Of a stretch of DNA of 62,543 nt, positions 40,862 to 56,345 are shown piece after piece (positions within the stretch are counted from its first letter, which is position 1; each line of letters starts with the position of its first letter). The position numbers and the translations under genes were made by a program. Origin of the DNA: Myxococcota bacterium (lineage in GTDB: Bacteria > Myxococcota_A > UBA796 > CAJQPC01); NCBI GenBank assembly GCA_036012755.1, contig DASCPX010000228.1:1-62543 (forward strand), written 5' to 3'. The notes below the pieces were generated by a model. It saw only the letters and a program-made list of their open reading frames with translations. It was not told the DNA's origin and made no database searches.

Positions 40862-42532
40862 ATGTCTCAAGACCTCGACGGACTGCTCGGCAACCACACC
40901 GACACCTCGCCGCCCTACCAGGTGCTCGACGCGCTGCTGAAGGCGGCGCCCGGAAGCTCGGGTGTCACCGTCTGGAGCACGATCGCGGAGGCCGCTGACG
41001 CGCTGGGTATCGACCCCTCGAACGCGGATCGCGCGAAGGAGATCACCCGCAGCGGCGAAGCGCAGAGCGCCCTGTGGATGCTCCAGGGGCTCGACGAGGG
41101 CGACGACGTCTTCTCCATCATCTCGGGGCTCTCCAGCGCGGTCCGGATCTACCTCGCCGACCACGCCGATCCGAGCGTCGATCTCACGCGCCAGAAGCAG
41201 GCGGAAGACGCCGTGAAGAAGGCCTTGGGCATCGCATGGGCCACCGACAGGCTCTTTGGCGGGACCCCCCAGCAGAAGGTCGACGCGCTGATGAGCCTGG
41301 AGGCCGGGCGCGCGCTGGTCGCGTTCTATGCCGTGACCGAGATCGCCCTGCCCTTCCTCACCGACACGAGCGAATCCGGCCCCGGGATCGTCGACCAGCT
41401 GCTCGAGAGCCACCGGGACGCCGAGCTCGAGAAGCTGGGCGGCACCGTGGGCGCCGACCGCACAGGCGGGGCGACCACGCTGGTTCCCCTGCTCACCCCC
41501 CACCTCAAGGACGCGGTCGAAGCCAACGAGAAGCGACTCGACAAGCTGGTCGAGCAGATGCAGAAGCGGCTCCCGGCGCTGCTCTCGGTCACAGGTCAGC
41601 TCGGCGAGGCCGCGGCCCACGGGGTCGACGCGCTGCCGATGTACCACCTGCTGTCCGCCCGCCTGCTGGCAGAGGCCGCGCTCCGGCAAGCCGCAGATCC
41701 CGAGAGCTACCCGCTGCCGCTCGACGAGGACAAGGAGCGCATCGTCGCGGAGGCGAGGGCGAGGGCAGAGGAGCAAGCGCGCGCCTCGCTGGAAGCAGAG
41801 AAGGCGCGCCTGGCAGAAGAGACAGAGAGGGAACGTGCCGAGGCGGAGCGGGAGCGCGAGACGGCGGAGAGACACGCAGAGCAGGAACGCGCGACGGCGG
41901 AGAGACACGCAGAGCAGGAGCGCGCGGAGGCCGAGCGCCAGCGCGCGGAGGCCGAGCGCCAGCTCGCGGCGGCGCTGGCGGCAGCCGCTGCCGCCGAAGC
42001 CGCGGCCGAGGCTGCGCGCGGCCAGGCGGAGGCGGCCCAGTCCGCGGCGGAGGCAGAGATGGCTCGCCAGCGCGCCGCGACCGCCGAAGCGGAGCGCGAG
42101 GACGCCCTGAAGGAGGCTCGCACGATCAGCGGGGAGCTACCCCCGCCTCCGGAGTCCGACCCGGAGCCGGTCAGGGCTCCCGAGCCGGTCAGGGCTCCCG
42201 AGCCGGTCAAGGCTCCCGAACCGGTCAAGGCTCCCGAACCGGTCAAGGCTCCCGAACCGGTCAAGGCTCCCGAGCCGGTCAAGGCTCCCGAGCCGGCCAT
42301 TCCCCCGCCTCCGCCGATGAAGCAGGAGCCGCCAGAGCCAACGAAGGCCCGGCCGGTCACGGAGACCCCCAAGAGCAACTCCAAGCTCAAGTGGGCCGTC
42401 GGCTGCTTCGTCGCTATCTGCCTGGTCGCCTGCTGCGGCACGATCGGCGCAGGGGCCCTCTCTGGTGTCATCTACTCGACGACAGGCATCGAGATCCCCC
42501 AGATCACGCCTCCGAAGAAGCGTCGCCGCTAG
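40862..42532 (+). CDS. Hypothetical protein: helical domain, coiled coil, Pro-rich repeat linker, C-terminal Cys-rich TM
   Basis: TAACCT 6 nt before ATG; E/R/A coiled coil; PEPVKA repeats; TM segment GCFVAICLVACCG. Confidence 0.8.
   Translation: MSQDLDGLLGNHTDTSPPYQVLDALLKAAPGSSGVTVWSTIAEAADALGIDPSNADRAKEITRSGEAQSALWMLQGLDEGDDVFSIISGLSSAVRIYLADHADPSVDLTRQKQAEDAVKKALGIAWATDRLFGGTPQQKVDALMSLEAGRALVAFYAVTEIALPFLTDTSESGPGIVDQLLESHRDAELEKLGGTVGADRTGGATTLVPLLTPHLKDAVEANEKRLDKLVEQMQKRLPALLSVTGQLGEAAAHGVDALPMYHLLSARLLAEAALRQAADPESYPLPLDEDKERIVAEARARAEEQARASLEAEKARLAEETERERAEAERERETAERHAEQERATAERHAEQERAEAERQRAEAERQLAAALAAAAAAEAAAEAARGQAEAAQSAAEAEMARQRAATAEAEREDALKEARTISGELPPPPESDPEPVRAPEPVRAPEPVKAPEPVKAPEPVKAPEPVKAPEPVKAPEPAIPPPPPMKQEPPEPTKARPVTETPKSNSKLKWAVGCFVAICLVACCGTIGAGALSGVIYSTTGIEIPQITPPKKRRR
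42161..42295 (+). repeat. 18-bp tandem repeat x7 (PEPV[R/K]A)
   Basis: CCCGAR-CCGGTCARGGCT units. Confidence 0.95.
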
Positions 42533-42644
42533 GCCCGATCCCAGGGCGCGACCGGAGAGCAACACGCGGCCGCGTGGTCCACGAAGGCCCTCATGCCGCC
42601 CAGTACATCCATGCCTGTCCCTCGGGGTGGTAAGCCTGCTCTTC

Positions 42645-43304
42645 GTGTTGGTCGCGCTCGCCATGCTGCTCGCACCTGCGACGGCGCGCAAGCCCGCGCC
42701 GGATGATGCGGTCGCAGAGAGCTTCCTCTGGTACCTCCACAACATGGAGCGCACCGTCGCCGAGAGCCGGACGATCCGATGGGTCCTGCATCGGCGCGAC
42801 GGCGCGACCGAGGGGTGGGACGAGCTGCACAACCAGTGGCGCGAGGGGGCTCAGCACGCCCGCTGGAAGGCCCCCTATGCCGGTCGAGAGGCCCTCTGGC
42901 TCGGCGACAAGGTCCACGTGTTGCCGGAGCCGGGGCTCCCGCTGTTGGAGGTCGAAGAGGGCAGCGCCATCCTCGGCGGTCCCTTCCTCGAGCACGGCGA
43001 GCCGGGCCTGATCACCCGGCTCGCCCAGGACGCGGCGCGGGTGGTCGCAGACCCGGACTACCCGACTCATGTCGTCGACCTCGGCGGCAAGGAGGTTCGG
43101 GGCGAGGCCGCCCGGTGCTTCCGAGTCACCTGGCCAGAGGGCTACCCCGACCACCCGCGCTCGGAGCTCTGCGTCAACCTGCGAACCAACCTGGTCGCCC
43201 GCCACGCGAGCTCCTCGTGGGAGCTCGAGTTCTCGGACATTCGCGTCGACGCGACCCTCGACGACGCTCTCTTCGAGCTGAGCTCGCTCACGAGCGAGCA
43301 ATAG
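42645..43304 (+). CDS. Exported protein, LolA-fold/DUF1571-like
   Basis: Signal peptide; GREALW, V.G....F, LEFSDIRVDATLDDALF C-terminus. Confidence 0.55.
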   Translation: MLVALAMLLAPATARKPAPDDAVAESFLWYLHNMERTVAESRTIRWVLHRRDGATEGWDELHNQWREGAQHARWKAPYAGREALWLGDKVHVLPEPGLPLLEVEEGSAILGGPFLEHGEPGLITRLAQDAARVVADPDYPTHVVDLGGKEVRGEAARCFRVTWPEGYPDHPRSELCVNLRTNLVARHASSSWELEFSDIRVDATLDDALFELSSLTSEQ

Positions 43305-43341
43305 TGTGTCTCGGGCCCCGTTGTGAGGCTCAGGAGGTTCC

Positions 43342-45045
43342 ATGATCCTGCTCCTGGGGTGCACGAGCACCACCGCCGTCACGACAGCACACGACGAAAC
43401 CGCGAACCCCGACGACACCGGCGTGCTCGGAGAGCCGGCGGACGCGCTGTCGCCGCTCGGCACGCTCCCTGGACTGAAGCACATCCAGGACCTCGGGCTC
43501 CTGGACGGGGACCGCGTGGTGATGGCCACCTACAGCGGCATCGCTGTCGCCCTCGCCGAGGACCCGGCGAACCCGACCCTCGCCGAGGCCGGCGGTCCGC
43601 CACTGTACTGGGTCGAGGAGGGCAGCGACGCGCTGGCCTCGGGCCGGGAAGCTGGTCTCTACCGCGTCGAGATCAGCGACGAGGGCTTCGAGATCGAAGC
43701 CCGCCTGGACGTCGAGGACGACCTGAATCCCGAGGAGGCCTCGCCCCTCGGAGACGGCGTCCTGTTGGCGGCCCAAGCCTCCGGACTGCTCAGCCTGGAC
43801 TCGAACCTGGTGGAGCTCGACCGCCTCGAAGAATCGGACAACGCCATCGCGGTCGCAGTCGACGGGGACGTGGCCTGGCTGGGTGACAGGGGCCAGGGCC
43901 TGATGGCCGTGGACGTGAGCGACCCGAGCGCGCTGGAGTTGCTGAGCGTGACGCCCCTGTCGGGTTCGATCCAGGACGTGGACATCGACGGAGGCGTCGT
44001 CGTTGTCGGGTCCTCTGGAGAGATCCACGTGCTCGACGGCAGCGATCCCACGGCCCCGGTCCTCCTCTCGTCCATAGACGGCCAGGGCGTCGCCACACGG
44101 GTGGACCTGGAGGGCAGCCGCCTTGCGGTGGCGAACTGGCTGGACCTCAGGCTCTACTCCATGGAGGATCCCGAGCTTCCAGTGCTCATCGCCATCGAGG
44201 ACGCCGCCGAGGCCATCGGCGCAGTGGAGCTCGACGGCGACACGCTGTGGGCGGGCGACTGGAACACCCTGCGGAGCTTCGCGATCGACGTGGAGGCGCG
44301 GAGCCCGGAGATCACGCTGCCGTCGAGCCTGCTGCTCTTCGGCGACGCCCCCGACTCGGAGCTGGTCCAGGTCGGGAACGAGGGCAACATGCGGCTCGTC
44401 GTCGACGACATCGTGTGCGGCGAGGGTCTGCAGGCGAGTCCCACGACTTTCCAGCTGGCGCCTGGCGGCTCGCAGCTCGTGGAGATCCTCGCAGAGATGG
44501 ACGGCAGCGAATGGGAGGGGAGCTGCATCGTCACGAGCAACGACGCGGACGAGGCCAGCGCGAGCATCGCCGTGAGCGTGAACCCAGCCGGACTCGCGCT
44601 GGGTGACCAGGCCCCGGACTGGGAGTTCCCCGATCTCGAAGGCAACGTCCACCGGCTGTCGGACACCGACGGCCAGGTACGCCTCATCACGCTGTTCTCA
44701 TCCTTGTGACCTTCCTGCGCCTCGGAGTTGCCGAGCCTCGAAACGGACGTCTGGCAGGTCTGGCAGGACAAGGGCCTCGTGGCCTACGCGATCAGCAGCA
44801 GCACCATCGGGCCGGAGAACCCGCAGGATCTCGCTGAGTACGTCGAGGGCATGAAGCTGACGATGACCGTGCTCGCCGACTACGACGTCACCGTCTACTA
44901 CGACTACCGGATCAACGACCCCGACGCCTACGCCCCCTACCCACGCGAGTACGTCGTCGACCGGGACGGGACCATCGTCTACATGGACTCCAACATCGAC
45001 GTGGTCGCCCTGAACGCGCTCCTCGAGGAGCTGCTGGGCGACTGA
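43342..45045 (+). CDS. Probable selenoprotein lipoprotein: LVIVD repeats, Ig-like domain, redoxin domain with UxxC (TGA 44707-44709 = Sec)
   Basis: RBS AGGAGG, MILLLGC; GDQAPDWEFPDLEG..RLSD..GQVRLITLFSSL-TGA-PSCASELPSL continues in frame into ORF 44728..45045 (PYPREYVVDRDGTIVY), completing a TlpA/AhpC-TSA fold. Confidence 0.85.
44719..44737 (+). promoter_or_regulatory. Candidate bacterial SECIS hairpin
   Basis: CTCGG-AGTTG-CCGAG stem-loop; the loop starts 16 nt after the UGA and has G at its second position. Confidence 0.55.
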
Positions 45046-45090
45046 CGTCTCACCCATGACACATTCATGACGACCGAGGGGTACACCTGG

Positions 45091-45107
45091 GTAGACAGGC
45101 TGTCTAC
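45091..45107. promoter_or_regulatory. Perfect palindrome, candidate repressor operator
   Basis: GTAGACAG-G-CTGTCTAC overlapping a TACAGT hexamer upstream of the redoxin gene. Confidence 0.55.
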
Positions 45108-45134
45108 AGTGCCCGCGGCACCCTCGGACGACCC

Positions 45135-45938
45135 ATGCTGCGCCTCTGTCTGTCCCTGGTCGGTATTCTCGTGCTCGCAGGCTGCACCGCTGTCGACGAT
45201 GGCCAGATCGGACCGACCGACCGACCGCGTCCCGACCGCGGCGGGCAGGACGAGGGTGACGACGGCGACGACACCGGCGACGGGAACGAAGGCGGCAATG
45301 ACGACGCCGATGACGACGGCGACGGGCTCACCAACGGGGAGGAGCATGACCTCGGCACCGACCCGAACGACGCCGACACCGACGGCGACGGTTGGGACGA
45401 CGGTGACGAGCTCGACGAGAACACCGATCCTACGGACGGCAACGACAAGCCCTACGCCGGCGGCTACCCAATCGACGCCTGCCGCTGGGACGTCGAGTCC
45501 ACGGGCATGAACGTCGGCGACATCGCGGAGAACTTCAAGCTCGAGGACCAGCACGGTGAGCAGGTCCGCCTGCACGACTTCTGCGACCACGCGATCGTGG
45601 TGGTCGGCAGCGCTGGCTGGTGTGGCCCGTGCGTGTCGGAGGCGAAGGTGCTCGCGCGGCTCCAGGACAAGTACGAGGACCAGGGCCTGATCATCATCAC
45701 CCTGTTGGCCGAGAACTCCTACGGCGGCACGCCGAGCCAGGCCGACCTCGAGGACTGGGAGGCCGAAGCCGGGTACTCCGGCGCTCCGGTGCTGGCTGAT
45801 CCTGGCTGGGGAACGGAGAGCAAGTACGAGCAGGACGGCTACATCCCGACCGTCTCCCTGCTCGGTCCAGGGGCCGAGATGCTCATCAAGGACGGCAACG
45901 TGAGCGAGAGCCAGATCAAGCAGGTCCTGCCTTGGTGA
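45135..45938 (+). CDS. TlpA-like redoxin lipoprotein with Asp-rich Ca-binding repeats
   Basis: LAGC lipobox; DDDGDGLTNGEE..GTDP..DTDGDG; SAGWCGPC; YIPT. Confidence 0.9.
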   Translation: MLRLCLSLVGILVLAGCTAVDDGQIGPTDRPRPDRGGQDEGDDGDDTGDGNEGGNDDADDDGDGLTNGEEHDLGTDPNDADTDGDGWDDGDELDENTDPTDGNDKPYAGGYPIDACRWDVESTGMNVGDIAENFKLEDQHGEQVRLHDFCDHAIVVVGSAGWCGPCVSEAKVLARLQDKYEDQGLIIITLLAENSYGGTPSQADLEDWEAEAGYSGAPVLADPGWGTESKYEQDGYIPTVSLLGPGAEMLIKDGNVSESQIKQVLPW

Positions 45939-45947
45939 GCGGCTTGC

Positions 45948-46958
45948 TCAGCTCCGGCCCAGCGCCTGCGCGATGAACTCTGGCGAGCGGCTGCGGGCGA
46001 CGCGCTCGCGGACCACGAACACAAGCTCCCCGGTGGACTCGCCGTGGCGGTCCTGCAGCGTGCCGGGGGTGCACCTCAGCAGCTCGTAGGCGCGCAGGTC
46101 GAGGTGGTAGCCGACGACGAGCACCTCGCGTGGGCTCGTTCGGCAAGCGAGCACGATGGGGTGGGACAGGCATGCGCTCAGCGCCGCGTTCCAGGCGCCG
46201 AGGTCGAAGCGGGGGTTCGGCATGACACGCGTGACCACGCCGCGGGCGTTGGCGGCGACCTCGGCTCGGGCCAGCGCTGCCCGGAGCCGGCGATCGGGGA
46301 GGTCGTATGCGGCCAGCTGCTCGATCGGACGCCAGCGCCGGCTCTCCGGCTCCCACCACTCCAGCTGAGGAACCCTGAGCTTGTAGTCCATGGCCGGCTC
46401 ACCAGGGAGGACGTAGCCCGCGTAGTGGTACCTCAGCCCGAGCTCCTGGGCGTGGAGGACCTCCAGCAGCATCGTCGCGATGCCCAGGCTGTGCTTCGCG
46501 AAGCGGGGGTCGAAGATGCCAGCGACGGACTGGATGGCATGGCGCCCTCGATCGAAGAGCGAGAACGCCGCCAGCTCTCCCCCATGACGCAGCTCCAACA
46601 GCCGCGTGTCGAAGATACCGGGCTGCGAACCCAGGAGCTGGTCGAGGTCTTCTGGCCGGTCCCCGCCGACGTGCTCGCGGTAGCGCCGGTAGATCTCCTC
46701 GTGCTCTGCGCTGAAGATCACGTCGCCGATGCGCCTCTCGAAGAGAGCCCGGATGCGCTTCATGCGCTTGTTCTGGTTTCGCGTGAGCTGCAGGTCCTCC
46801 AGCCGCGACCGGGTCCAGATCGCCGGGACGAGCCGACCGGAGTGCGTCACGAACCGGCACGTGAACAGGGCCTGGCGCATGCGGTACCAGCCGCGAGCCA
46901 GGTAGTCGTCGAGCTCGTCGGAGCTGAGCTCGTCGGGTCGCGCGACCTCGGTGTACAC
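45948..46958 (-). CDS. Arginyl/leucyl-tRNA--protein transferase (Ate/Bpt-like)
   Basis: YLARGWYR, YRRY, FDP...KHSLG, YHYAGY.....MDYK. Confidence 0.8.
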   Translation of the reverse strand: MYTEVARPDELSSDELDDYLARGWYRMRQALFTCRFVTHSGRLVPAIWTRSRLEDLQLTRNQNKRMKRIRALFERRIGDVIFSAEHEEIYRRYREHVGGDRPEDLDQLLGSQPGIFDTRLLELRHGGELAAFSLFDRGRHAIQSVAGIFDPRFAKHSLGIATMLLEVLHAQELGLRYHYAGYVLPGEPAMDYKLRVPQLEWWEPESRRWRPIEQLAAYDLPDRRLRAALARAEVAANARGVVTRVMPNPRFDLGAWNAALSACLSHPIVLACRTSPREVLVVGYHLDLRAYELLRCTPGTLQDRHGESTGELVFVVRERVARSRSPEFIAQALGRS

Positions 46959-47726: not shown

Positions 47727-48935
47727 ATGGCAAGGCTCTGCTGTCTGGACCTCGACACCTTCTTCGTGTCGGTGGAGCGCCTCCTGGACCCCTCCTTGAT
47801 CGGCAAACCCGTGGTCGTGGGCGCTGTCGGCACCCGCGGGGTCGTCACGGCCTGCAGCTACGAGGTGCGGCGCCTCGGCGTGAGGAGCGGCATGGCCATC
47901 TCAGAGGCCCGGCGCCTCGCTCCCCGAGCGGTCTACCTCCCGCCCAGGCACAACACCTACACCCCATACGCCAAGCGGGTCCGAGAGGTGCTCGAGGGCT
48001 TCACCCCGGTCGTTCAGACCGCCAGCATCGACGAGTTCTTCCTCGACTTCCGCGGCTGCGAGCGTCTCTATCGACGGGACGGGGACCTCGACGACGACGC
48101 TACGATCGAGCGCATCGCCTGGGAGATGCGAGAGGCTGTCATGGCCGAGACCGGGCTCCCAGCCAGCTGCGGACTGGGTGTGACCCGCAGCGTCGCCAAG
48201 ATGGCGAGCGGCATGGCAAAGCCCGCGGGCGTGCGCATGGTGCGGCCCGGCACCGAGCTCGAGGTCTTCCGGGACGCGCCGGTTCGCAAGTTCCCGGGGA
48301 TCGGCCCGGTGATGGAGGCGAAGCTGGCAGAGGCGGGCTTGTTCACCCTCGGCCAGCTCGTCGAGCTCGGCGCCGGGCGACAGCGCGGTCGGTTTCGCCG
48401 TGTGTCCGAGGGGGTGCAGCGGGCGTTGTCCGGCCACCGCCGCGAGCTCGGCAGGGACCGACCGGCCTTTCGGGAGCACGATCCCGACGGTCTCACGCTG
48501 GGCTCGATCAGCAACGAGCGCACCTTCCTCGCTGACGTCGGGGACCAGCGACGCATCCTCGACCAGCTGCGCGTCCTCTGCGAGAGGGTCTGCTGGCGAG
48601 CCCGCAAACGCTCGATCAGGGCTCGGACCGTCACGCTCAAGCTGCGCTACTCCGACTTCCACACGATCACCCGGGGGCGCACGCTGCACCCGACGAACCG
48701 GGAGAGCACCGTCCTCGCCTGCGTGAGCCAGCTCTACCGCGAGGGGCGCACGAGGGACCTGCGGATTCGCCTCCTGGGAGTCCAGCTGTCGAACCTGGTC
48801 GGACGGGACATGCAGCTCTCCCTCCCCTTCGGCGGGCCCACAGAGCGGCCGCAGGTAGGCGGGGCGATCGACGCGGTCAGGGAGCGCTTCGGCTACGACG
48901 CCATCCGCTTCGGCACGCCCAGGAAGTCGTCGTGA
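47727..48935 (+). CDS. dinB: DNA polymerase IV
   Basis: LDLDTFFVSVE, CSYEVR..GVRSGM, SIDE, AKMASGMAKPAG, SISNERTF, TVTLKLRYSDF. Confidence 0.95.
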   Translation: MARLCCLDLDTFFVSVERLLDPSLIGKPVVVGAVGTRGVVTACSYEVRRLGVRSGMAISEARRLAPRAVYLPPRHNTYTPYAKRVREVLEGFTPVVQTASIDEFFLDFRGCERLYRRDGDLDDDATIERIAWEMREAVMAETGLPASCGLGVTRSVAKMASGMAKPAGVRMVRPGTELEVFRDAPVRKFPGIGPVMEAKLAEAGLFTLGQLVELGAGRQRGRFRRVSEGVQRALSGHRRELGRDRPAFREHDPDGLTLGSISNERTFLADVGDQRRILDQLRVLCERVCWRARKRSIRARTVTLKLRYSDFHTITRGRTLHPTNRESTVLACVSQLYREGRTRDLRIRLLGVQLSNLVGRDMQLSLPFGGPTERPQVGGAIDAVRERFGYDAIRFGTPRKSS

Positions 48936-49039
48936 ATCGCCTGAGCCGTCGACGCGACAGGCAACAGGCAAAGAGGACGAGCGCAACCAGAGAGAGCATT
49001 CCCCGATGCCAACGGCGTAGGCTTCGGCTTGGAGGCGCG

Positions 49040-50374
49040 GTGTTGTCGGTGCTACCCGGTCTGATCTGGTCACTCGGATGCGAGGCGACCGTCGGTAGCA
49101 TCGACGTCAGCGACGACAGCAGCGACTCGGCCAACACGCCCGATGACACCGGCAGGGAAGACGTCCCGGGGGTGGCAGAGGTCCTCCCGGTGCTGGTCAT
49201 CGCGACCTCCGACGACATCGGCAGCGAGAAGGTCGCGGGAACGCTGGAGGTCGTCGAGGTCCACGAAGGAGATCCAGAGGACATCGACGATGCGCCGCGC
49301 AGCCTCGTCACGGACATCGGCATCGAGGTCCACGGTTCATCTTCCCAGGGCTACCCGAAGCTCGGCTACCGCATGGAGACCCGCGACGAAGACGGGGACG
49401 ACGAGAACCACTCGCTCCTTGGGCTGTCCTCTGGCAGCGACTGGGTCCTGCACGCGCCCTACTCGGACAAGACGCTCGTGCGGAACGCGCTCAGCTACGG
49501 CCTGGGCTCGCTCATCTCAGAGGCCTACCAGCCCGGGACGCGCTTCGTCGAGCTGATCCTCAACGACCGCTACCGGGGGGTCTACGTCGTGGTGGAGCGC
49601 ATCCGACGCGGCCGGATCGAGCTCACGGACCCGGAAGAGGACGTCACCGGCGCCTACATCGTGCGCATCGACCAGCACCGCAACGAGGGCTGGAACACGA
49701 CCGTCGGCACACCCATCGACTGGTACCAGCCGCGCTACGAGGACATCACGTCGGCCCAGGACACCTACCTGCGGGGGTGGTTCAACGACTTCGAAGCGGC
49801 GATGTCGAAGGACGACTTCGCCGACACCTACGAAGACTGGATCGTGACCGACGAGTGGATCGACCACTTCCTGGTCAACGAGCTCTCCCACAACATCGAC
49901 GCCTACCGCCTGTCGGCCTACCTCTACAAGGACGCCGAGGCCGACGGCGGCAAGCTCCACGCTGGCCCCCTGTGGGACTTCGACAGGGCCTACGGCAACG
50001 TGAACTACTGCGACTGCTGGTACGCGGAGGGCTGGATCATCGACAGCCTCATCGACTGCGGCGAGGGCTGGCAGTTCCCCTTCTGGTGGAGACGGTTGGA
50101 GCAGGATCCTGCCTACCAGGAGGCAGTGGACTGCCGCTGGGAGGCCCTCCGCGCCGAGCACTTCTCTGATGCCGCCCTCGAAGAACACATCCGAGGCCTC
50201 GTGGTCGAGATCGGCGAGGCCGAAGAGCGCGATCACGACCGGTGGGACGTGATCGGCCAGTACATCGATCCCAACTACTACGTCGGCGACACCTACGAAG
50301 ACGAGATCGACTGGCTCATCGAGTGGACCCACCAGCGGGCAGAGTGGATGGACTCAGAGCTCGTCTGCGACTGA
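49040..50374 (+). CDS. CotH kinase family exported protein
   Basis: RBS GGAGG before GTG; HGSSS..YPK, WVL.APYSDKTLVRN, YRGVY, GPLWDFDRAYG. Confidence 0.88.
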   Translation: MLSVLPGLIWSLGCEATVGSIDVSDDSSDSANTPDDTGREDVPGVAEVLPVLVIATSDDIGSEKVAGTLEVVEVHEGDPEDIDDAPRSLVTDIGIEVHGSSSQGYPKLGYRMETRDEDGDDENHSLLGLSSGSDWVLHAPYSDKTLVRNALSYGLGSLISEAYQPGTRFVELILNDRYRGVYVVVERIRRGRIELTDPEEDVTGAYIVRIDQHRNEGWNTTVGTPIDWYQPRYEDITSAQDTYLRGWFNDFEAAMSKDDFADTYEDWIVTDEWIDHFLVNELSHNIDAYRLSAYLYKDAEADGGKLHAGPLWDFDRAYGNVNYCDCWYAEGWIIDSLIDCGEGWQFPFWWRRLEQDPAYQEAVDCRWEALRAEHFSDAALEEHIRGLVVEIGEAEERDHDRWDVIGQYIDPNYYVGDTYEDEIDWLIEWTHQRAEWMDSELVCD

Positions 50375-54587: not shown

Positions 54588-56303
54588 TCAGTCGAGCCTG
54601 CAGATGAAGGGGAGCTCGTATGAGCAGGTGCCGTCCTCCCAGTACCAGGAGTTCGGGGTGATCGCCGCGCAGTTCTCGGCGGTGCCGCCGTTGGGAGCCC
54701 CTCCACCCCAGGCCGGCGCCACCGCTTCCCCCTGCGGATCCACCCAGGTGCCCTCGGATGCGGCGTCGGTGGCGCCCACCCACCACCAGTAGATGCCGTC
54801 GAAGTAGGTGGTGTGCCAGTAGGTGTAGATGAAGATCACGTACCAGTCCTCGCCCGTCCGCGGGTAGCCGAGGTTGGCGTCGTGGGCCTCGCACTCGGCC
54901 TGCGCCTCGTCCCAGCTGCGGGGGTACCAGCACAGGAGCATGCGCGAGTCTCCGAAGGCGTGCTCCTCGCAGGTGTCGCACTCCTCTGCGTCGTCGATGT
55001 GGCTGTTGCAGTCGTCGTCCCGCTGGTTGCAGCGCTCCTCGGCCCCCGGGTTGATGAGCGGGTCGCCGTCGTCGCAGTCCTCGCACGAGCTGTAGCCGTC
55101 ACCGTCGGAGTCGGTCTCCGACCCTCTCTTGCAGTCCACGCGCGCGTCGAGGAAGGCGTGGCGGCCGTGACCGTAGGCCGCCAGGCGCTCGAGGGCCGAG
55201 TCGTGCTCCGCGACGGAGAAGTTGGTCATCGGATCGCTGGCGAAGGCCTCTGCAATCTGCTCTCCCCAGTCCCCGACGCGCTGAGCCATGAGGTCGGGGT
55301 CGTAGGACTCCACCGCCTCGTCGAGGGCGGTGATCAGGCGGGGGCCCCACTCGGCGTCGCCGGCGACGTTGTCGAAGTGGTACTGGTTGTTCGAGCCTCG
55401 GTACCAGCTGTAGGGGTCCGCCCAGAACGGCGTGGCGTCGAAGGAGTAGTCGAGGTCCCAGGGGATGAACATCAGCCCGCGCTCGGGATGCTCGTAGATG
55501 TAGAAGTTGTGGGAGCAGCACCAGTAGCCGTCGTTGTGCGGGATGACGGCCTCTGTCGCCCACTCGGTGATGTTGTACTCGAGGTCGGTGTGAGCCTCCT
55601 GCCACGCCACGCTCGTGTTGCTCCAGAACTCGGACAACAGCGCCGGGTCAGAGGCCTCCGCGTTGGAGGTGACCTGGGTGCCGTACTTCCAGAGCCCGCC
55701 GGTGGCGTTGTCGCCGAAGTTCCGCTCCAGGAACTCGTGGTCCACGAACTCGATGTTCTTGTAGAGCCCGTAGACCTCGCCGTTGATGTACAGCAGCGCG
55801 TTGTTTGCGCAGGGAGCCGGGATGCCGTGGTCCCGCATGTAGGCATACGCGAGCCGGTCCCGGATCAACGTCGGGTCGTACCACGACGAGTCCAGGGTGA
55901 GCTTGCGCAGACCCATGAAGCGAGCGTCCTCGTCGTACTCGTTGAAGGAGATGACGAACTGCATCTTGTCGCCGAGCCACGAGAACCCGGGGTTGCCGCG
56001 CAGACGCACGGCTGCGTTGTCCACCTCGATGTCCTCTCCAGAGGCGTAGACGAACCTGGCCGGGTGGTACTGCTTCACTCCCGAGGCGTAGTCCGAGATG
56101 ATCCCTGCCCACTCGGCCTCGTCGATCTCCAGGTGGAAGACAGGCAGGATCCGCTGGTCGTAGAGGGCTGGACAGCCGTCCTCGCCGGCAGCGGTGACGG
56201 TCTCCACGGCCGAGTCGGAGACCTCGCCGCCCTCGCCCGGGAGGGCAGGCAGGGTCGCGCTGCAGCCCGACGACAGCAGGCCCGGGAGCAGCACAAGAGG
56301 CAT
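54588..56303 (-). CDS. CotH kinase family lipoprotein with metal-binding repeat and C-type lectin domain
   Basis: VRLRGN, GLRKL, YGLY, HNFYIY, IPWDLDYSF; DCDD...ERCN..DDDC; WVGATD..SEGTW..PNGG..ENC...W.D..C...FIC. Confidence 0.88.
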   Translation of the reverse strand: MPLVLLPGLLSSGCSATLPALPGEGGEVSDSAVETVTAAGEDGCPALYDQRILPVFHLEIDEAEWAGIISDYASGVKQYHPARFVYASGEDIEVDNAAVRLRGNPGFSWLGDKMQFVISFNEYDEDARFMGLRKLTLDSSWYDPTLIRDRLAYAYMRDHGIPAPCANNALLYINGEVYGLYKNIEFVDHEFLERNFGDNATGGLWKYGTQVTSNAEASDPALLSEFWSNTSVAWQEAHTDLEYNITEWATEAVIPHNDGYWCCSHNFYIYEHPERGLMFIPWDLDYSFDATPFWADPYSWYRGSNNQYHFDNVAGDAEWGPRLITALDEAVESYDPDLMAQRVGDWGEQIAEAFASDPMTNFSVAEHDSALERLAAYGHGRHAFLDARVDCKRGSETDSDGDGYSSCEDCDDGDPLINPGAEERCNQRDDDCNSHIDDAEECDTCEEHAFGDSRMLLCWYPRSWDEAQAECEAHDANLGYPRTGEDWYVIFIYTYWHTTYFDGIYWWWVGATDAASEGTWVDPQGEAVAPAWGGGAPNGGTAENCAAITPNSWYWEDGTCSYELPFICRLD

Positions 56304-56345
56304 GCCCCACGGTAGCACCGGGCAGCCGGCGACGAGCCGCGCGAA

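Follow-up and report, generated by a model that had tools for sequence, protein, structure and literature searches.

Does a TGA codon in the middle of a redoxin domain end a bacterial gene, or does it encode selenocysteine (Sec) within a longer protein? The question is raised by a contig of a Myxococcota bacterium (assembly GCA_036012755.1, contig DASCPX010000228.1, positions 1 to 62,543 of the forward strand; this whole 62,543-nt stretch is referred to as the window), in which an open reading frame (ORF) starting at ATG 43342 (+) halts at TGA 44707–44709, just past the residues ITLFSSL, while the same frame beyond this codon stays open until TGA 45043–45045. Read through, with TGA as Sec, the whole gene (43342–45045, +; 567 codons including the one in-frame TGA, stop at 45043–45045) specifies a product of 567 residues with the motif U456-P-S-C459. 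The in-frame TGA, a bacterial Sec insertion sequence (SECIS)-type hairpin behind it and a full Sec machinery in the genome lead us to conclude that TGA 44707–44709 almost certainly encodes Sec, and that the locus therefore specifies a single 567-residue selenoprotein.

Decoding of the in-frame TGA

The start at ATG 43342 is fixed by a Shine-Dalgarno-like AGGAGG (43332–43337, +) located 4 nt 5′ of it and by an in-frame stop (43324–43326) 18 nt 5′, which together rule out an earlier start. A codon model derived from this genome gives the 111 codons on the far side of the TGA a coding score of 0.48; the upstream ORF scores 0.29, and the remaining five frames lie between −0.08 and −0.95. The Pfam domain AhpC-TSA (PF00578) matches residues 421–548 straight across the codon (E 6e-18; 65.4 bits at a cut-off of 26), and PF08534 also scores on the redoxin (37.1 bits at a cut-off of 26.6). 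The TGA is no assembly slip, as it is bridged without any difference by contigs assembled from four runs (X1, X2, X3, and X5, which come from two studies and are all flagged as possible sources, hence not fully independent) and is also read in two metagenome contigs, the only two identical copies that a metagenome scan yielded; runs X7, X8, and X9 do not reach the codon, and in X6 it lies close to a contig end, at a distance of 25 letters.

Assessed as 95.95 % complete and with a GC content of 68 %, the genome contains tRNA-Sec (selC), selA, selB, and selD, each above its family cut-off, with selD carrying an in-frame TGA of its own. In the genomes of relatives, selA was found in 40 of 41 (own genome included), and all five distant carriers checked possess both selA and tRNA-Sec. 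A genome-wide reading of TGA as Trp or Gly was ruled out, since TGA closes thousands of coding-like frames and the alternative residue at this position is Cys. This alternative emerged from a six-frame search of the genomes of 40 relatives, in which 61 loci taken from among the matches listed (73 weaker ones lie outside them) gave 65 sites at residue 456, or 64 without one duplicate and with this gene counted: 61 of these sites read TGA, two TGC, one TGT, and none TAA or TAG. Both sides of the codon are similarly conserved, with 35 % identity between members 3′ and 42 % 5′ of the TGA, and 55 % and 42 %, respectively, for the nearest relative.

The bacterial SECIS (bSECIS)-type hairpin, CTCGG-AGTTG-CCGAG (44721–44735, +), pairs 44721–44725 with 44731–44735 around the loop 44726–44730. 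With a stem of 5 bp, a loop of 5 nt, G at loop position 2, and the loop 16 nt past the codon, it lies within the bSECIS geometry given in sections of PMC13188914 (loop 3–9 nt, stem 4–16 bp, G at loop position 1 or 2, spacing 16–37 nt). Its stability, in contrast, counts against the hairpin: energies of −6.5 kcal/mol alone, −7.2 over 31 nt, and −9.4 over 44 nt are borderline with respect to the −7.5 kcal/mol or below of the consensus model; the hairpin is no stabler than dinucleotide shuffles (z 0.02 and 0.70); in 64- and 94-nt windows another fold beats it as minimum-energy structure; and with five pairs it ranks among the weakest of the family. As folding energy thus carries no signal, synonymous shuffles and covariation were used instead as evidence. 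A five-pair stem at this place arose in only 5 of 500 synonymous-codon shuffles that preserved the protein. All 61 TGA members carry a stem of 5–8 pairs at the SECIS place, with a mean of 6.3 versus 2.4 in synonymous shuffles (the members are related by kinship, so that these counts are not independent), whereas all three Cys members examined form merely two pairs there. The stems fall into two registers that are offset by a single base. Among the 12 members listed for the register of this copy, 91.7 % of cells pair and 8 cells are changed on both sides, a result attained by none of 500 shuffles; the changes on both sides affect 3 of the 6 pairs, and registers slid along the same 12 members pair to only 12–50 %. 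The hairpin of this copy is weak, but it covaries with its relatives.

A true stop, be it a nonsense allele or the boundary between two genes of 455 and 105 residues, would agree with the frequency of TGA as a stop in this genome, where 3190 coding-like frames end in it, 183 of them with a chance five-pair hairpin. TTG 44728 could open a 105-residue ORF, and databases store the 455-residue form. Such a stop would, however, sever the thioredoxin fold at its active site, and it is hard to reconcile with a codon that is kept at nearly all sites across proteins only 21–39 % identical to the query (25 aligned members), with Cys as the sole replacement and with a hairpin that accompanies TGA and is missing with Cys. 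Moreover, 41 of the 61 members have no start codon within the next 15 codons. We therefore regard termination as extremely improbable; partial termination at the UGA under selenium scarcity may be considered alongside Sec insertion.

These results support the initial annotation, made from the sequence letters alone, which had described an ORF ending in the middle of a redoxin with the frame continuing to 45045, as well as the position of the hairpin, its 16-nt spacing, and the G at loop position 2. It had further proposed to look for the four sel genes, for TGA or Cys rather than TAA/TAG in homologues, and for TGA rather than TGC/TGT in reads, all of which were found (the last in assembled contigs), and it had anticipated that gene callers split the protein, as illustrated by the 455-residue database form and by a RefSeq relative ending at UGA (see below).

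Domain architecture and the protein family

An AlphaFold2 model on 26 sequences (pLDDT 89.5, pTM 0.86) bears out the earlier proposal of a propeller, an Ig-like domain, and a redoxin in one chain. Behind the leader, a flexible Thr/Asp-rich tether (residues 8–30; 43363–43431, +; pLDDT below 50 for residues 6–28) leads into a seven-bladed β-propeller of LVIVD-type repeats (residues 36–315; 43447–44286, +), assigned from Pfam and the model. Its blades were counted from the strand list of the model, Pfam matching a single LVIVD repeat at residues 168–200, and it superimposes on the WD40 propeller 3ow8 with Z 33.8 and rmsd 1.9 over 266 aligned residues at 11 % identity. The Ig-like all-β domain (residues 320–415; 44299–44586, +) is assigned from the model and from Ig matches of ASH/HYDIN type in homologues; no Pfam Ig domain matches this copy itself. 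In the model, the all-β fold extends over residues 330–413 and the thioredoxin fold over 428–565. The C-terminal redoxin is of the ResA/TlpA-type thioredoxin fold (residues 421–565; 44602–45036, +) according to Pfam, profile, and structure matches. Foldseek aligns it to ResA (1su9; rmsd 2.5, TM 0.87 by target), and the solved relatives ranking top for the family profile are mostly of ResA type.

Across 127 aligned members (118 with Sec), the residues W307, N346, G348, D401, G421, U/C456, P457, C459, E462, and P534 are conserved to 97–100 %. Trp307 (44260–44262, +), located in the model on a loop between two strands of blade 7, reaches 100 %, and the Ig-domain residues N346, G348, L352, and D401 lie at 97–100 %. 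Within the redoxin, Sec456 (44707–44709, +), assigned through the homologue column, takes the first position of U-P-S-C and the predicted resolving Cys459 (44716–44718, +) the second; the Pro inside the motif is found in 99 % of members, Glu462 (44725–44727, +), three residues past Cys459, in 97 %, and Pro534 (44941–44943, +), a predicted cis-proline preceded here by Tyr, in 99 %, with Tyr or Phe before it in 94 %. No Cys column beyond UxxC rises above 38 %. The family profile at 450–462 reads A/Y/F/A/T/W-U-P-V-C-x-x-E, and in this copy Leu precedes Sec456 in place of the Trp or Phe of most relatives. Interdomain covariation on the 127 sequences gave noise, the alignment being too shallow. In NCBIfam, the query passes no cut-off, and the 26 members matched only general redoxin-type models plus two weak Ig-type matches.

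Neither the recoding nor the catalytic domain is of a new kind. Prx-like/Redoxin UxxC selenoproteins share with the protein PF00578 and PF08534, a UxxC Sec, a 3′-adjacent SECIS, Cys homologues, and marine occurrence; here, however, the redoxin is fused behind an LVIVD propeller and an Ig domain, with export signals and many paralogues. LVIVD-repeat cell-surface proteins (PF08309; PMC2447325) have the same repeat type and propeller fold. Large multi-propeller proteins are numerous in the protein library, and the best-scoring of them match in the propeller or Ig part only, whereas here a Sec redoxin is joined to the propeller. Table 1 of PMC13188914 lists 119 selenoprotein families, including the UxxC PF00578/PF08534 kinds, and none of its 119 rows is a propeller fusion; the paper contains neither “propeller” nor “lipoprotein” nor “Myxococc”. 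The word “propeller” is also absent from passages of PMC9312934 and PMC2398784, and the fusions named in the passages of PMC2398784 covered (12 of 16 places) include none of a propeller with a redoxin; supplementary sequence sets, such as those of GOS, could include members. A search for literature combining selenoproteins with LVIVD, or dealing with this family, found none, its scope excluding most subscription journals. As far as these sources extend, the propeller-Ig-Sec redoxin fusion is uncatalogued. The initial annotation had not recognized the combination as characterized; the protein is no one-off and belongs to a large family with many copies, which itself falls within a known kind of selenoprotein.

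Among the matches listed, those spanning propeller to redoxin come from 20 of the 21 same-family genomes and from 8 of 19 that belong to other families of the order. One genome (G008) has at least 15 such matches with one TGA each, nine of which were checked. The two other genomes of the genus hold no close orthologue, their best redoxin matches reaching 32–33 %. Whether a tree was built from the whole span, from the redoxin by itself, or from propeller and Ig without the redoxin (midpoint-rooted, without a clade test, and excluding members with fewer than 440 residues before Sec), the protein pairs with the locus L022 (support 1.0) and falls in the same 17-member clade (support 0.82–0.98); Cys forms are scattered over several places. 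A paralogue in the same genome (C137:128812–129951, −; L041) carries FATW-U-PVC and a six-pair SECIS in the other register; it is about 26 % identical and belongs to a different clade. Elsewhere, full-length family genes stand in tandem or near-tandem, each with its own TGA and hairpin (L027/L057, L061, L138/L139, L146/L147, and L160/L161). Another full-length family protein, P0091, has lost both active-site residues (SPNDPRA), which suggests that propeller, Ig, and inactive redoxin may serve binding.

The exact DNA pattern of codon plus hairpin, searched with one genome per species, occurs in at least 123 stretches. At least 126 matches were obtained, 123 of them in a family-type redoxin, and 74 of the 83 with wide flanks show propeller, Ig, and redoxin in one frame. 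As the pattern was derived from the family, these counts show its reach and give no independent proof of the hairpin. According to their record titles, the carriers belong to Myxococcota, Neomarinimicrobiota, Calditrichia, Zixiibacteriota, Krumholzibacteriota, Gemmatimonadota, Vicinamibacteria, and Anaerolineales, although some titles look unreliable: L088, L090, L093, L102, L110, and others are titled “uncultured Enterobacterales”, “Klebsiella sp.”, or “Rickettsiales” while their genes resemble Myxococcota-type members, and these titles are probably wrong. The same pattern was also observed in W-U-PHC redoxins with no propeller or Ig match (L092, L176).

In a cluster-representative protein library, the top 150 matches to the family profile comprise 19 that start with the profile and stop just before the Sec column, seven of full length (six with Cys at the Sec column and one with the motif lost), and 124 that cover propeller or Ig parts only. 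A word-indexed protein search returned only the stop-shortened 455-residue form itself and distant propeller proteins, because the relatives are less than 40 % identical. The cultured carrier Paraliomyxa miuraensis SMH-27-4, which has selA and tRNA-Sec, is represented by RefSeq WP_266214752.1, a 542-residue entry that ends at UGA and is named “alkyl hydroperoxide reductase”. Databases thus mostly store the family stopped at UGA (19 of 26 family-length matches in the top 150, plus this entry), and as a consequence the selenoproteomes and the selenium demand of these marine lineages are undercounted. The catalogue of bacterial selenoproteins gains a predicted exported, multi-domain, multi-copy family, and the cultured carrier, together with the natural Cys forms, makes Sec insertion, location, and activity directly testable.

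Predicted export, proposed function, and rival readings

We consider it moderately probable that the protein is an envelope thiol-disulfide reductase with Sec read at the UGA, anchored by lipid and recharged by DsbD/CcdA. Initially, SelB with Sec-tRNA would act on the hairpin, so that UGA 456 is decoded as Sec, a step that we take as nearly certain. The leader would then be lipidated at Cys7 and tether the protein outside the cytoplasm, which is quite probable. Judging by fold and motifs and by analogy with ResA, CcmG, TlpA, and Etrx, the Sec456 selenolate would attack a client disulfide or other oxidized sulfur and Cys459 would resolve the adduct, with formation of a Se-S bond. Re-reduction could be carried out by a DsbD/CcdA-type membrane protein, a putative partner whose gene (DsbD_TM) is present in the genome. 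Finally, domain type and joint inheritance suggest that the propeller may select or hold the client, with the Ig domain as spacer. The substrate is likely an oxidized protein of the cell envelope.

The assignment as envelope reductase follows from the DsbD_TM gene and from three sequence features, namely the Pro in the dipeptide, the Glu at +3, and the predicted cis-Pro. According to sections of PMC5909903, these features characterize the extracytoplasmic reductases CcmG, ResA, and StoA, which are recharged by DsbD or CcdA; the lipoproteins Etrx1/2 are described in parts of PMC3914529 as extracytoplasmic reductases serving a surface Msr. With ResA, CcmG, TlpA, StoA, and Etrx the protein shares the fold, these motifs, and a DsbD/CcdA-type gene in the genome, and with Etrx1/2 the predicted lipoprotein-type anchoring. 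It differs from them in having Sec for the first Cys, Tyr or Phe before the cis-Pro, and two extra domains; the query falls far short of the NCBIfam cut-offs for ResA (42.8 of 170 bits) and TlpA (25.7 of 230 bits), and no cytochrome c maturation or msr gene occurs among the neighbors scanned.

Several observations weigh against this reading. The residue before the cis-Pro is Tyr in 59 % and Phe in 35 % of members, an aromatic that belongs to no textbook class, so that the motif does not fix the redox direction. No conserved neighbor suggesting a client or donor was found in a scan of 119 of the 182 flanking ORFs of family loci (suspected antisense shadows excluded). Human NHLRC2, which likewise combines thioredoxin (Trx) and propeller, was inactive in an insulin reduction assay (in sections of PMC6107167). 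Several distant members have no N-terminal Cys leader and bear an added C-terminal Por_Secre_tail, FlgD-Ig, or dockerin domain (of 10 scanned, two had Por_Secre_tail above cut-off, one FlgD-Ig, and one dockerin), and such secretion-tail forms may be out of the reach of DsbD. Finally, the leader of the present copy contains only five hydrophobic residues and no charged N-region, as detailed below.

The aromatic residue bears on the possibility that the same selenoprotein is a folding catalyst (isomerase or oxidase) for Cys-bearing surface proteins, with the propeller binding clients. CcmG-type reductases have Ala, Leu, or Val before the cis-Pro (sections of PMC5909903), unlike the family, and many paralogues per genome with no fixed neighbor would suit such a catalyst. 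According to the same sections, however, isomerases typically have Thr and oxidases Val at this place, and U-P-x-C, the Glu at +3, and the ResA-like fold indicate reductases, which renders a folding role unlikely.

The protein could also be a surface seleno-peroxidase acting directly on hydrogen peroxide or lipid peroxides, given that AhpC-TSA is the best Pfam domain match in 26 of 26 members and that databases label relatives “peroxiredoxin” or “alkyl hydroperoxide reductase”. Selenols, moreover, react fast with peroxides. The peroxiredoxin motif PxxxTxxU/C (as given in sections of PMC13188914) is, however, absent, since UxxC begins with the Sec; Arg at position 535 is found in no more than 28 % of members, and the peroxiredoxin models of NCBIfam match weakly, so that we rate this activity as quite unlikely.

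The invariant Trp307 and the whole-chain pTM of the model would fit a design as in SOQ1 or NHLRC2, in which the propeller and the Trx domain form a cleft for one dedicated client, for example, in the repair of oxidized Met or Cys. The SOQ1 structure 7djl ranks fifth in Foldseek, and parts of PMC6107167 report that conserved residues of NHLRC2 line the Trx-propeller cleft and that bacterial homologues lack conserved neighbors. These proteins resemble the present one in combining a TlpA-like domain, a propeller, and an all-β domain in one chain without operon context. The match to 7djl is, however, poor as an overlay (rmsd 19.7, TM 0.31), the domain order is reversed, six NHL blades contrast with seven of LVIVD type and CCINC with UPxC, and the Msr activity of SOQ1 needs cysteines of its C-terminal domain (sections of bioRxiv 2024.11.01.621559), of which the Cys columns here offer no conserved counterpart. 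NHLRC2/SOQ1 represent a parallel design and a separate family, and we deem a mechanism of their kind distinctly improbable.

Least credible among the catalytic alternatives is reductive dehalogenation of marine organohalogens in the manner of a deiodinase. Deiodinases have Sec followed by Pro, as is the case here, and 7 of 26 members are hit by the model NF038285 (“deiodinase family protein”) at a best E of 2e-6. ResA matches are far stronger (E 8e-26, 22 of 26 members), Pfam PF00837 matches none of the 26 at E 0.001, and the His or Glu-x-His that deiodinases have past the second strand is not conserved here; dehalogenation is accordingly very unlikely.

Returning to the envelope reductase, its anchoring would rely on an ultrashort leader, MILLLG-C (43342–43362, +), with residues 1–6 preceding the predicted lipidation site Cys7. 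Textbook lipoprotein leaders span about 15–25 residues with a charged N-region and are thus far longer. The hydrophobic stretch, an [AGS]-C lipobox, and Lgt and LspA in the genome are all present, whereas the textbook length and charge are not provided by six uncharged residues. Cys7 is kept in at least 90 % of 26 aligned members, and most full-length members fetched begin with a hydrophobic stretch and Cys. The C-terminal Por_Secre_tail, FlgD-Ig, and dockerin domains of distant members likewise count as export signals. Genome-wide, 341 of 4208 coding-like ORFs have an ultrashort uncharged leader (Cys at position 6–12, peak at 8; 49 ORFs have Cys at position 7), whereas the controls give 4–32 ORFs when a residue other than Cys is required, and 43 for internal windows. 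Export of the protein is plausible on this evidence. The earlier designation as lipoprotein is thus backed by Cys7 and the genome-wide pattern, and it is weakened by a leader far below textbook length.

Among the 341 ultrashort-leader ORFs, 177 have a Shine-Dalgarno-like motif and 70 a −10-like hexamer 5–7 nt before the ATG; the latter suggests leaderless mRNAs. A literature search on ultrashort lipoprotein leaders found no publication. The genome holds five Lgt and two LspA matches over cut-off, with lspA-lspA-lgt-lgt in tandem at C59:100000–102591 (L217) and the others on contigs C203, C40, and C127, and the extra lgt/lspA genes are possibly linked to the ultrashort leaders.

A broader scenario can be drawn for the family as a whole, namely an overlooked multi-phylum group of surface or fully secreted selenoenzymes, amplified to some 15 copies in a single genome. 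A variable seven-bladed propeller would aim a constant Sec redoxin at different targets outside the cell (proteins of prey or particles, or organic sulfur), and the enzymes would be anchored either through an ultrashort leader of lipoprotein type or through a tail of the type IX secretion kind. The family would then be a major, so far hidden, user of selenium in marine bacteria that are predators or dwell on particles; we offer this as a tentative idea that is doubtful in its full extent.

Neighboring genes and further TGA sites

The next gene on the same strand (45135–45938, +) encodes a lipoprotein that combines a redoxin of Cys type (WCGPC) with bacterial TSP3 repeats; over 63 residues its identity with the Sec redoxin is only 25 %, and no such neighbor was seen beside the relatives scanned. 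Upstream lies a same-strand gene (42465–43304, +) with no Pfam or NCBIfam match. Further away, the window contains a CotH kinase-family protein (48932–50374, +) and a similar-looking ORF (54588–56318, −). No sigma-70 promoter, terminator, or informative repeat was matched in 42300–46100, and a plasmid search with the gene gave no match. At related loci, ArsR with CbiQ or an ABC ATPase lies upstream in three cases, FG-GAP proteins adjoin five loci, and sulfatases adjoin three, all as raw counts.

Of the 34 in-frame TGA candidates that a crude genome-wide scan returned, many are evidently spurious. Credible candidates are, among others, this gene, the C137 paralogue, a further redoxin, and genes that we take from their motifs to be formate dehydrogenase-like, AhpD-like, and UshA-like; the hairpin spacing is similar in all of them. 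At C240:55121 (+), a TGA with a SECIS-type hairpin follows a 639-codon open frame in the context IAHN-U-WG, matched to no recognized family. Further TGA codons with a SECIS-type hairpin and coding-like sequence on both sides were located at C59:151038 (+), C9:99274 (+), C135:2965 (−), C70:137246 (+), and C59:125829 (+).

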